Origin: PVC group bacterium | GTDB taxonomy: Bacteria > Auribacterota > Erginobacteria > Erginobacterales > Erginobacteraceae | Assembly: GCA_043804695.1 (NCBI GenBank) | Contig: JAZDIV010000065.1 | Coordinates: 1-12,127 of the forward strand | Length of the DNA: 12,127 bases | Direction: 5' to 3' | Shown: positions 10,107 to 12,127 of the stretch, piece by piece | How positions within the stretch are numbered: position 1 is the first letter of the stretch | Layout of the letters: every line of letters begins with the position of its first letter | Translations under genes and position numbers: made by a program | Notes under the pieces: generated by a model | Told to the model about the DNA's origin: nothing | The model's input: the letters and a program-made list of their open reading frames with translations, nothing else | Databases searched by the model: none

Positions 10107-10970
10107 CTATTTGTTCTTCTCTACTTTCCATCGAAAGCGTGTTGATAGCCTCCACCCAACAGCCGGGCACTCTTCTTCCATTCCGATCTGCGTCATGACA
10201 CCTTCGGACTTCTCGTCCTCGACCTTCGTGATCCTGACGGACTCGACGATGTTGTCGGGTTTGACCACATGTAATTCCATTCCAGGCAGGAGTCCGTGAT
10301 CCTTTCCCACGTTCAGAGTGACGGGGATATCCTTGAAATTCCAGTCGCAAACACTCGGCCGTGTCGTAGGTAAGCCGACAGCAACAATCCCGGCCGCGAT
10401 CGGCCGCTTCAACAAATAGGCTTGGAACTTCTGTGGGACGCTCGGAAATCCGAAGACGTTCTTCTTCTCATCGCCAGCCCTCAAAAGGTAGCTGCCATGG
10501 GCATATTCACGGGGCTCCGAACCTCCGTTTACGTCATTGCAGAAGCCGACGACGTCGTCTGCCGGGACTAAATATCTTCTCGGTCCCCACGGGATGGGGA
10601 TGAACTCCTCTGCAATTCCTTGGAACCCTTCCCTCTTGTTCTCGAACGTGAAGTCAAGACGTATCCTGCCATTTGCCTCCGAGACAGCGCCGTAGTTCCG
10701 ATCATACAGGCCAAGACAGCCATGCCATTCAAACAGGTATCCGGACTTCGGTGCCAGCAACAAAGACACGTTCACTCCCCGGCCGTCTCCGTGGTAGTAC
10801 TCCCCGGCCCACGCATGATCACCCAGCGTCTTAATCTCTGCCGGTATCTTCTCACGGAGTACTTTGGCCGTATTCTCCGCCTCATCAGAGTATTTAGAGT
10901 CATCAGAACTGCCTGCAAAGGCCGTGAGGGCAATCAACGACAGAATGGAGAGGAGTGGGCATGTTTTCAT
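10107..10970 (-). CDS. Hypothetical exported protein carried as an integron gene cassette
   Basis: GGGAG RBS before ATG 10970; signal peptide (MKTCPLLSILSLIALTAFA|G); ATG lies about 20 nt from the upstream GTT core and the stop abuts attC R''. C-terminal LNVGKDHGLLPGMELHV resembles FlgT-C-like beta domains (tentative). Confidence 0.8.
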   Translation of the reverse strand: MKTCPLLSILSLIALTAFAGSSDDSKYSDEAENTAKVLREKIPAEIKTLGDHAWAGEYYHGDGRGVNVSLLLAPKSGYLFEWHGCLGLYDRNYGAVSEANGRIRLDFTFENKREGFQGIAEEFIPIPWGPRRYLVPADDVVGFCNDVNGGSEPREYAHGSYLLRAGDEKKNVFGFPSVPQKFQAYLLKRPIAAGIVAVGLPTTRPSVCDWNFKDIPVTLNVGKDHGLLPGMELHVVKPDNIVESVRITKVEDEKSEGVMTQIGMEEECPAVGWRLSTRFRWKVEKNK

Positions 10971-10984
10971 CTTCGTCTCCCTGC

Positions 10985-11111
10985 ACACAACGCCGAGCTC
11001 AGCCGCCCCGGTTATAACCAGAAAATATTGGAAGTAATATTACTCCTGACCAATCCAGTCGAGCCAGCAGCCGCAAGGCGGTAAAGGGTCGGCTTAAGCG
11101 TATGGATACTG
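10985..11111 (-). other. Integron attC site (~127 bp) upstream of the cassette gene, R'' disrupted by the IS110 end
   Basis: Minus strand: CAGTATC at the R'' position, 5-nt spacer CATAC, L'' arm GCTTAAGCCGACCC, variable loop, L' arm GGGGCGGCTGAGC, 5-nt spacer TCGGC, R' GTTGTGT. Arms pair with extrahelical bases as in attC. Confidence 0.78.
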
Positions 11112-11254
11112 TTTAAGGCCTCCTCCTTTATCATGCCGATTGGTATGATGAAGAGAAACATTAACCCGCAACCCACGACAAGCCCCGATAAATCGGGGGG
11201 GCCGGGGAAAGGAGGACTTGTCCGGCACGTTTTTTATGACGTATGACGGAGGCC
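11105..11254 (+). ncRNA. Candidate IS110 bridge/seek RNA region
   Basis: Non-coding leader upstream of the IS110 transposase with a 12-bp hairpin (11126-11153), stem GACAAG/CTTGTC (11177-11182/11217-11222) enclosing hairpin CCCCGA-TAAA-TCGGGG, and long-range pair GGCCTCC/GGAGGCC (11117-11123/11248-11254). RNA identity is inferred from position. Confidence 0.45.
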
Positions 11255-11356
11255 ATGTGATTCTACACCCAGCGACATAAATTTTACTGCGGGGTGGATC
11301 TGCATGCAAGGTCAATGTATCTCTGTATCCTAAACCGGGCGGGGAATTTTCGCTAC
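11105..11356 (+). mobile_element. Truncated IS110-family element: left non-coding end plus start of transposase
   Basis: attC similarity stops at 11104/11105 and is followed by a ~150-nt structured leader and an IS110 transposase N-terminus. Both boundaries are inferred; the right one is approximate. Confidence 0.75.
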
Positions 11357-11401
11357 AGACATCAGTCCGGTGTGGGGAAGTTCAGCGAATCGGATAATTG
11401 A
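11255..11401 (+). pseudogene. IS110-family (DEDD) transposase N-terminal fragment, nonsense codon at position 2
   Basis: After GGAGG the frame reads M*FYTQRHKFYCGVDLHARSMYLCILNRAG..., the 'GxDLH...cild..G' first catalytic-Asp motif of IS110 RuvC-like domains. Similarity is lost after ~11350 and the frame stops at 11399-11401. Absent from the ORF track. Confidence 0.82.
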
Positions 11402-11519
11402 GCCTCGATAGGAGTTTGGAGCGGGCATGTCCTGTAGCCAGCGAAGTTTGAGAAATTCACCTGAAAAATGAATAAATCATAGTCTTTTCTCCGGCGATTT
11501 GCGGTAATTGTATAAATAT

Positions 11520-11796
11520 TTATTCATCTTTAATGCCAGCAGGACAATTCGTTCCCTTCATACACCTCCCCATAATTCCTTCTACTTGTTCAAGTTCATT
11601 CCTTTTCAAATTCGGCGGAAATTTTTAGAAACTCTTTTCGTAAATCCCAGGGTATAAAATAGATGATGCCCATACCGCAAAGGAAAAGTATATAAATTGC
11701 TAAAGCTCTCTTTGAAAATCGAAAAACAATAGCAGGAATGCTAAGGAGAGACCAGAGAAGAACTATAAAAACGTAAAATATTAATGCAGCATGGAG
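11520..11796 (-). pseudogene. Frameshifted, start-less remnant of an AT-rich membrane protein gene
   Basis: 11793-11596 reads HAALIFYVFIVLLWSLLSIPAIVFRFSKRALAIYILFLCGMGIIYFIPWDLRKEFLKISAEFEKE* (two hydrophobic helices) with an in-frame TAA upstream. Shifted frames continue KGM / LEQVEGIMGRCMKGTNCP...* to 11520. Confidence 0.5.
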
Positions 11797-11861
11797 TTAA
11801 GCAATGGGGGCAAAGGGGGACTTCGGTGGCGTCTTTACTTAAAAAAGTATCTTGATTGTCG

Positions 11862-12127
11862 TCATCTTCCCCCTTGGAAAATTATAGACCACAGATATTC
11901 GGCTACCCGCCTATGCCCTTCAGGGGAAAGGTGCGTATCACCCCAGATCCCCTCCAGGAAATAGTCGGTTTCATAAATTCCCTTTTCTGATTTGAAGGCC
12001 GGTAGCAAGTCTATAAAAGTGAAGCCGTTCTCCGAGCAAAACTCTTTCAACCTCTCCTGGGGGTAGAGGATTATCTTTTTATCTCCATTTTGATTGAGTG
12101 CTTCAATTTGTGGCCGGGCGGGGACTG
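11862..12127 (-). CDS. SGNH/GDSL hydrolase family protein, C-terminal part (5' end outside window)
   Basis: Frame is open to the window edge (VPARPQIEAL...PQERLKEFCSENGFTFIDLLPAF...GDTHLSPEGHRRVAEYL); D-x-H block V-type motif followed by the typical terminal helix. Confidence 0.8.
   Translation of the reverse strand, partial: VPARPQIEALNQNGDKKIILYPQERLKEFCSENGFTFIDLLPAFKSEKGIYETDYFLEGIWGDTHLSPEGHRRVAEYLWSIIFQGGR

Follow-up and report, generated by a model that had tools for sequence, protein, structure and literature searches.

Positions 11111-11254 of contig JAZDIV010000065.1 from a PVC group bacterium (assembly GCA_043804695.1) are the left end of a dead insertion sequence (IS) of the IS110 superfamily, with an IS1111-type layout. 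We refer to the whole stretch of DNA that was analysed, 12,127 nt in length, as the window, and all window features described below lie on its + strand. The segment is noncoding and was identified by homology to intact copies as the leader of a decayed element. We hold with good confidence that the window carries a dead left end, that the guide RNA of intact relatives lies 3' of the transposase gene, and that in live elements the leader would combine an element end with a fold-back onto the ribosome-binding site (RBS). A first-pass annotation of the window had proposed instead that positions 11105-11254 were a structured IS110 leader encoding a bridge/seek RNA for attC targeting.

Within the order, 14 genomes were searched, and four of them gave a match to the leader. 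In the same-genus genome G006, two copies share 99.6% identity over 1,734 bp and differ in their flanks, which defines an element of ~1.7 kb; comparison of these two copies also set the left boundary. The intact transposase, P0001, is 347 amino acids long, matches PF01548 (the DEDD/RuvC-like N-terminal domain; 1.8e-12) and PF02371 (the C-terminal domain; 5.5e-15), and scores 180.1 bits on NF033542, 'IS110 family RNA-guided transposase' (cut-off 140). The homology to intact copies and the domains of P0001 bear out the earlier assignment of the stretch as the leader of an IS110-superfamily element. Residues 202-261 of P0001, under PF02371, additionally gave a weak match to the NCBIfam model 'TIGR-Tas system RNA-guided endonuclease' (31 bits, compared with a cut-off of 100).

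Alignment with L013, the locus of an intact copy in G006, defined what is left of the element in G000, the genome of the window. Window positions 11103-11216 align to L013 1507-1600 and positions 11250-11351 to L013 1600-1702, and the leader is 144 nt in the window, compared with 91 nt in the intact same-genus copies. The left sub-terminal inverted repeat, AAGGCCTCCTCC (11115-11126), is the inverse of the right-end repeat that intact copies carry, GGAGGCCTT, and also complements the RBS. A relic of the transposase gene follows (11255-11351), in which the ATG is succeeded by TGA at codon 2, where the intact copy has AGA, and then by FYTQRHKFYCGVDLHARSMYLCIL.. (reading on from the leader: ATG, TGA, FYTQRHKFYCGVDLHARSMYLCILN..). 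The relic comprises 32 codons, with window 11250-11351 covering the RBS and these first 32 codons, and homology fades by 11351. Pfam gave no match for the 46-amino-acid relic of the window, and the assignment was made by 97% DNA identity to the intact copy over 11248-11325. Approximately 1.3 kb of the element (L013 1703-3019) is deleted. The sole surviving piece of the 3' noncoding region, at 11381-11456 (L013 3020-3095; 91% identity, family alignment), carries the right-end junction sequence repeated in the same sense (CCTCGATAGGAGTTTGG); neither the guide modules nor the right end survives. The locus is an ordinary relic of a known kind of element, and is annotatable as a dead IS footprint.

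The G000 assembly (155 contigs, 88% complete) contains three further partial leader copies, on contigs C133, C154 and C110, none of which is followed by a transposase gene. Left-end pieces were located at C133:2217-2409, C154:9476-9563 and C110:15612-15657, and right-end pieces on C110 (two), C24 (two), C30 and C90 (one each). The contigs of G000 carry several separate left-end-only and right-end-only footprints, with no intact copy among them.

To place the element in a family, one genome per species was scanned, which gave 176 relatives; the best 80 of the 176 were kept, with 50-100% protein identity, and these are spread across many phyla. The closest named relatives appear, from their sequences, to be ISGsu4 and ISMahy12, and we refer to the family as ISGsu4-like. 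For 46 of the 80 loci, the left and right ends could both be identified. After ..NNNNTTGATACT at the end of the left flank come 4-5 variable bases and (G/A)AGGCCTCC, and the right end reads cTTGACA-N10-GGCCT(C/T)ATA(A/G)G(G/T) up to the boundary. The same 46 loci share sub-terminal inverted repeats (left ..(T/A)(G/A)AGGCCTCC.., right ..GGAGGCCT(C/T)A..), with 4-5 nt outside the repeat on the left and about 5 nt on the right. Leaders measure 62-114 nt in 54 relatives, and the 3' noncoding region is 456-662 nt long in 45 of the 46 elements, with a single element at 1,097 nt. The IS1111-type layout as published combines long sub-terminal repeats with a left end that is short and a right end that is long (PMC11208160 section 12; PMC11187229 section 6). 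Two marks of the IS1111 group are present here: repeats that are sub-terminal and inverted (7-17 bp in that group), and a long noncoding region placed 3' of the transposase gene, the left end being short. Placement in IS1111 proper is uncertain, because the GL-P----S(t)G motif was not seen when P0001 was read by eye; its C-terminus, ..SSYARLVKCARGSAGK.., has SA and no proline. The element is filed here under the IS110 superfamily with an IS1111-type layout.

Comparison of the intact relatives places the predicted guide just 3' of the transposase stop codon and not in the leader. The first 230 nt after the stop are conserved and contain two short segments beside an invariant TGG. Segment 1, NNNCTAAC-TGG, lies +34 to +57 past the stop and is the reverse complement of the right flank, and segment 2, NNNNNN-TTGAT-TGG, lies +129 to +166 past the stop and has the same sense as the left flank. 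The match between guide and flank was assessed in 34 of the 46 elements, seven having been left out for short flanks and five because the motif was not found. The six variable bases of the left-flank guide gave 89 own-flank matches out of 204, compared with 54.5 +/- 5.9 after permutation (0/10,000 as high), and the right-flank guide, in which three elements are shifted by one base, gave 100 out of 204, compared with 90.2 +/- 4.4 (190/10,000). Correspondence can be read directly in L050 (ACCCTGTTGAT and flank AGCCTGTTGAT), L090 (CCCAAC and GTTGGG) and L048 (TTTAAC and GTTAAA). It should be noted that the family members are related, and that the permutation and shuffle tests used here and below overstate independence and give p-values that are too optimistic. 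RNAalifold, applied to the 34 sequences, predicted a long-range stem that encloses both segments, in which 18 of 20 pairs show compensatory changes.

The leader gave no such signal. The longest exact match between an element's own target and the first 230 nt of its 3' region was 6.76 nt, compared with 6.16 nt for non-cognate targets (0/5,000 permutations), and the corresponding values for the leader were 5.06 and 5.11 nt, the own-target value being reached in 3,536 of 5,000 permutations. Loop-to-target covariation, which the first-pass annotation had looked to for support, was thus absent from the leader and present for both guides of the 3' region, and the guide signal maps downstream of the transposase, the location that the same annotation had named as speaking against its proposal. 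Published IS1111-type guides are likewise placed downstream, including those of the attC-targeting ISKpn4, ISPst6 and ISPa25 (PMC11187229 sections 6, 8, 9; PMC11208160 section 12). The top-strand match is 5' of the bottom-strand match in IS1111-type seekRNAs, those three included (PMC11187229 section 9), and the order of the two segments in the ISGsu4-like family is this published order.

The 3' noncoding region as a whole (L013 2650-3214) contains at least three conserved modules. Module 1 consists of both flank-matching segments in the covarying stem. Module 2 contains a second ..CTAACTGGA.. and then ..TTTGAATGGGACGGTATGAGGG..TTTCTAGGTCGC.., and module 3, ..GAACCTCGATAAGTGTTTGGTGCAGG.., repeats the right-end junction (..CCTCATAAGT followed by GTT) in the same sense and varies along with it (GTA in L043, ATAGATGTT in L050). 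Pairing of the module-2 motif CGGTATGAGGG with the leader hairpin was considered and rejected, no covariation being visible by eye.

The proposal of a bridge/seek RNA had been drawn from the structure of the window copy, and every motif on which it was built is present where it had been placed. The 12-bp hairpin 1 is formed by CTTTATCATGCC (11126-11137) and GGTATGATGAAG (11142-11153) around the loop GATT (11138-11141). GGCCTCC (11117-11123) can pair with GGAGGCC (11248-11254) to close the end onto the RBS, and the alternative partners TCCTCCTTT (11121-11129) and AAAGGAGGA (11208-11216) are 100% complementary over 9 nt. The halves of a second arm, GACAAG (11177-11182) and CTTGTC (11217-11222), and of an inner hairpin, CCCCGA (11183-11188) and TCGGGG (11193-11198), can also be read in the sequence. 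Positions 11105-11110 (GATACT) are target flank and lie outside the element. The RNA fold of 11105-11254 has an energy of -58.7 kcal/mol, compared with -41.96 +/- 3.77 for 200 dinucleotide-preserving shuffles of the same segment (z -4.44, 0/200 as good). Its minimum-energy form contains hairpin 1, the CCCCGA/TCGGGG hairpin and the GGCCTCC/GGAGGCC closing stem, and leaves GACAAG/CTTGTC unused, with GCCGGG..CCGGC paired instead.

The second arm lies in two insertions of the dead copy. A 20-nt insertion (11183-11202), a clean gap in the alignment with L013, carries the CCCCGA/TCGGGG hairpin; it is absent from intact copies and common only to the dead G000 copies on C133 and C110. A 33-nt insertion in the old RBS (CTTGTCCGGCACGTTTTTTATGACGTATGACGG, 11217-11249), which is unaligned to L013 between 11216 and 11250, supplies the CTTGTC half of the arm, and a similar insertion is found in the C133 copy. 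Because it is built from two insertions seen only in the dead copies of this genome, the second arm is not conserved. The ancestral Shine-Dalgarno sequence, AAAGGAGGA at 11208-11216, which was identified by alignment to L013 and is complementary to 11121-11129, is now split from the start codon. Rfam returned no match at E <= 1 in the window, and only two chance-level matches in the intact copy. A scan of 10900-11600 for sigma-70 promoters and terminators returned none of either, the promoter scan requiring a -35 element. The exact 35-nt pattern spanning the 20-nt insertion was found in no metagenome contig, a search that would miss the C133 variant, and the hairpin pattern was found in a second metagenome scan on two contigs, both with a short leader and truncated genes.

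Given these results, we regard it as very improbable that the leader encodes a bridge/seek RNA with loops for binding both the attC target and the ends of the donor. The strength of its structure is what such an RNA would lead one to expect, the bridge RNA of IS110-group elements such as IS621 comes from the left end (PMC11208160 section 12), and a few IS1111 relatives have upstream or double noncoding regions (PMC11187229 section 6). The first-pass annotation had also likened TTAAC and GCAAC in the linker 11154-11176 to the YAAC core of attC. YAAC words are indeed modestly enriched between the hairpin and the RBS of family leaders (45, compared with 23.6 +/- 4.4 in shuffled sequences; present in 30 of 56 leaders), but no covariation with the target is seen, and the enrichment may reflect common ancestry. 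The proposal is at odds with the absence of excess own-target matches in the leader and with the guide signal and covarying structure of the 3' region. It is also at odds with the intact leaders, which at 62-114 nt are mostly repeat, hairpin and RBS, with the confinement of the second arm to insertions of dead copies, and with the lack of an Rfam match. The architecture observed is that of a short noncoding end with one hairpin and a repeat/RBS stem, and not that of a bridge or seek RNA.

The conserved structures in the leaders of homologous elements are the repeat/RBS stem, which covaries, and the hairpin. In the stem, the Shine-Dalgarno sequence, and in many cases the start codon too, finds its complement in the outermost 16-18 bases of the element, which include the left repeat, as in CATTGAGGCCTCCTCC and GGAGGAGACCTCAATG. 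When the first 18 left-end bases were paired with the last 22 nt up to and including the ATG (n = 55, with L083 left out), the duplex energy was -18.3 kcal/mol for cognate and -16.2 kcal/mol for non-cognate partners (0/10,000 permutations). Among the leaders, 78-91% have their Shine-Dalgarno bases covered by the stem and 44-58% their ATG, and variants covary, the end TATGG occurring with CCATA before the ATG. The pairing with the RBS that had been noted in the window is therefore family-wide and covarying, and a role in limiting transposase translation is plausible.

An unlikely explanation of the leader structure is that it is functionless, a by-product of combining an inverted repeat with a GGAGG RBS and, in the window, simply decaying DNA. 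The window copy is certainly dead, and the complementarity of CCTCC to GGAGG comes free, non-cognate pairs already reaching -16.2 kcal/mol. Cognate pairing nevertheless beats all 10,000 permutations and reaches as far as the start codon on one side and the outermost left-end bases on the other (CATTG with CAATG, for example), and the excess stability of the hairpin, described next, is specific to its position.

The 12-bp hairpin with loop GATT (11126-11153) has a counterpart at the same position across the family. The 45 nt after the repeat have a mean z of -2.16 in 56 leaders, compared with -0.16 in 108 coding stretches (Mann-Whitney p = 6e-13). In 26 of 55 leaders, chosen for a common hairpin type, 70.2% of hairpin cells are paired, compared with 35-51% with slid partners; in the same 26, the covariation score is 0.244, compared with 0.176 +/- 0.016, and double changes number 13, compared with 5.0 +/- 2.0. 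The helix is rich in G-U pairs (for example, GU:10 and AU:9 in one column pair), which points to a sense-strand structure more than to a mere palindrome in the DNA. Within the window hairpin, an extended -10-like box, TGGTATGAT (11141-11149), occupies part of the loop and the 3' arm and is a candidate resident promoter of the transposase gene. Of 56 leaders, 26 have TGnTAnnnT at left-end positions 20-34, compared with 0.8 +/- 0.9 in shuffles, and 43 have TAnnnT, compared with 12.8 +/- 3.0. The end of the TAnnnT hexamer lies 35-52 nt before the ATG in 40 of the 41 intact elements that possess one and 58 nt before it in the other (L083 aside).

We also considered that the hairpin and repeat act as DNA, as a left end read by the complex of transposase and RNA, with the likeness of the RBS to the right-end repeat being incidental; we judge this to be improbable. 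The hairpin does lie beside the repeat at a fixed position, the RBS region does resemble the right-end repeat GGAGGCCTCATAAG, and, in ISEc11 (PMC11187229 sections 10, 11), the mini-element requires ~50 bp of left end. A DNA end sits poorly with the many G-U pairs that are kept, which are C-A mismatches on the other strand, and with hairpin sequences that differ widely among subfamilies while the TGnTAnnnT box stays put. In the cryo-EM account of IS621 (PMC11208158), moreover, duplex DNA is read by RNA.

Returning to our preferred reading, of a dead left end whose live counterparts have a 3' guide and a leader that folds back, several observations weigh against it in addition to the relatedness of the family members and the missing IS1111 motif. 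In most relatives, the repeat/RBS stem is interrupted at its centre by a C-A mismatch. The 26 leaders used for the hairpin statistics were picked by eye for the same hairpin type, and their register was chosen by the analyst. An unselected MAFFT alignment of 55 leaders gave 43.7% paired cells, and 59.2% at slide -1, a weak and out-of-register signal, and RNAalifold found no consensus pairs in the 26-leader set. Finally, the rationale that fold-back shields the element from outside transcription is weakened by the orientation of the right-side gene, which is opposite to the transposase strand in 24 cases, compared with 3 on the same strand. With the element probably antisense to the cassettes, cassette transcripts would run mostly antisense through it.

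A mechanism can be sketched for live elements. The left inverted repeat would serve as the recombination end, and a sense transcript containing the whole repeat would fold back and hide the translation start. Transcripts started at the TGnTAnnnT box would lack the repeat and be translatable. The hairpin would then be a sense-strand structure, acting as a 5'-end stabiliser, as a competitor for CCUCC, or as part of the end recognised by the transposase complex. We tentatively propose that the leader may be a cis-acting switch, in which either the outermost 16-18 bases pair with the Shine-Dalgarno sequence and AUG or the hairpin takes CCUCC, so that the origin of the transcript would set transposase translation; covariation and motif position make this possible, though we would not call it probable. 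The inputs of such a switch could be the resident promoter in the hairpin, the circle junction, or transcription from outside.

The logic resembles that of IS10 and IS50. In those elements, only a transcript initiated from outside includes the terminal repeat, which pairs with the RBS of the transposase gene, and the resident promoter lies downstream of the repeat. In the ISGsu4-like elements, the corresponding logic is suggested by covariation and motif position. The literature that we searched described no such control for RNA-guided IS110/IS1111 elements, and a demonstration of fold-back inhibition was not found there for any IS110/IS1111 element.

ISGsu4 and ISMahy12 (PMC11187229 supplementary file 6) have a transposase that, by eye, looks collinear with P0001, at ~347 amino acids. 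They share with P0001 the N-terminus M-RFYT..H.(F/Y)YCG(V/I)DLHAR and the C-terminal ..SY.RL(V/I)KC...SAGK....KIGN.HLKWAFSEA.., and differ from the window copy in that the latter is a footprint. Both stand at the far end of the published identity matrix (PMC11187229), and a literature search by the name ISGsu4 returned nothing on the targets or noncoding RNAs of ISGsu4 or ISMahy12. The family resembles the IS1111-attC group (ISPa21, ISKpn4, ISPst6) in its probable site-specific insertion at cassette recombination sites, its sub-terminal inverted repeats and its downstream guide (PMC11187229 sections 8, 9). Unlike that group, it belongs to a different, deep-branching transposase clade, the best plasmid-borne matches to P0001 outside the clade being ~30% identical, and its 3' region of 456-662 nt with at least three modules compares with peak seekRNAs of 82-154 nt in the IS1111-attC group. 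Degenerate IS1111-attC footprints in cassette arrays were reportedly described by Tetu and Holmes in 2008. With IS621 and the IS110 group, the family shares a DEDD RNA-guided recombinase and an internal loop that holds the guide strands and is shut by a covarying stem. It differs from IS621, whose RNA lies in the left end, upstream of the gene, in having a short left end without guide signal and a guide structure in the right noncoding region.

In the window, the left part of an attC-like target site occupies 10985-11110, and its flank fits the left-flank consensus of the family, ..NNNNTTGATACT. Within it, GCCGAGCTCAGCCGCCCC (10992-11009) forms an imperfect inverted repeat with GGGTCGGCTTAAGC (11086-11099), which is followed by GTATGGATACT (11100-11110). 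The right end of the window copy is lost; in the relatives, GTT begins the right flank in 39 of 43 cases, and the exact core GTTRRRY is present in 20 of 43. Reconstructed empty sites formed bulged hairpins in most of the 16 that were folded, and in some of them (for example, L019, L023, L024, L032 and L040) the right-flank GTTAG pairs with an upstream CTAAC. Such core-to-core pairing is as in attC sites. A crude search for the inverse core upstream (RYYYAAC, with at most one mismatch) found it in 8 of 39 sites, compared with 5.4 +/- 2.1 by chance, which is not significant, and empty target sites TKGATACTGTTRRR (at most one mismatch) were not above the reversed-pattern control in G000 and G006. 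Insertion beside a GTTRRRY core next to attC-like hairpins is in line with the attC-like targeting that had been suggested from the window; 'attC-like target' is well supported, and 'attC' in the strict sense is not proven.

Integron integrases scored above the TIGR02249 cut-off (439-462 bits, compared with 265) in genomes G006, G010 and G005, and the one at G006:C7:233078-234010 is encoded on the same strand as an intact copy ~12.7 kb away. No integron integrase exceeded this cut-off in G000, which is 88% complete. The integrases well over the cut-off also include those at G006:C26:450934-451878 (with an in-frame TAG), G010:C49 and G005:C364, and G006 and G010 contain several broken integrase fragments too. 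To the right of the element, the longest open reading frame runs against the direction of the transposase gene in 24 cases and with it in 3, and to its left the strands are divided 19 to 19. From this, we infer that the element is antisense to cassette genes and sits just past the first core of the site in cassette direction. On one gammaproteobacterial contig, three related copies (L074, L075 and L095) lie within ~20 kb, each beside ..TTGATACT and GTTAGG.. flanks, as expected for multiple hits in one cassette array.

Some further features were observed around the relics and element ends. An invariant-looking TTGAC(A/G) is found 18 nt from the right terminus in the 46 related loci (for example, L013 3191-3214), and would suit the -35 of a circle-junction promoter; this candidate was set aside, as no convincing -10 partner was found in the first left-end bases. 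In the C133 copy (L002 1695-1757), the relic is ended by a long near-perfect palindrome, ACCGAATGGGAGTAGACACTTCTT .. AAGAAGTGTCTACTCCCATTCGGT, and then TTAAGC, and ORFs (open reading frames) for a PIN-type toxin and an antitoxin-like protein adjoin it on the opposite strand. To the right of the window relic, positions 11457-11900 are AT-rich, unlike the remaining window, and lack a long ORF; an inverted repeat, AAAAATGAATAAAT / ATTTATTCATCTTT, is present there at 11464-11477 and 11518-11531.

For the window itself, the finding matters little, since the locus is a dead IS footprint. More generally, a highly structured leader is insufficient for calling a bridge RNA in the IS110 family, and the layout of the element, that is, its sub-terminal repeats and which of its ends is long, predicts the position of the guide. 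The comparison also exposed a poorly described ISGsu4-like clade, present in many phyla, that inserts at a GTTRRRY core beside attC-like hairpins. The unusually long, three-module 3' RNA region of this clade shows clear guide-to-flank covariation, and its leader would pair the end of the element with its own translation start.

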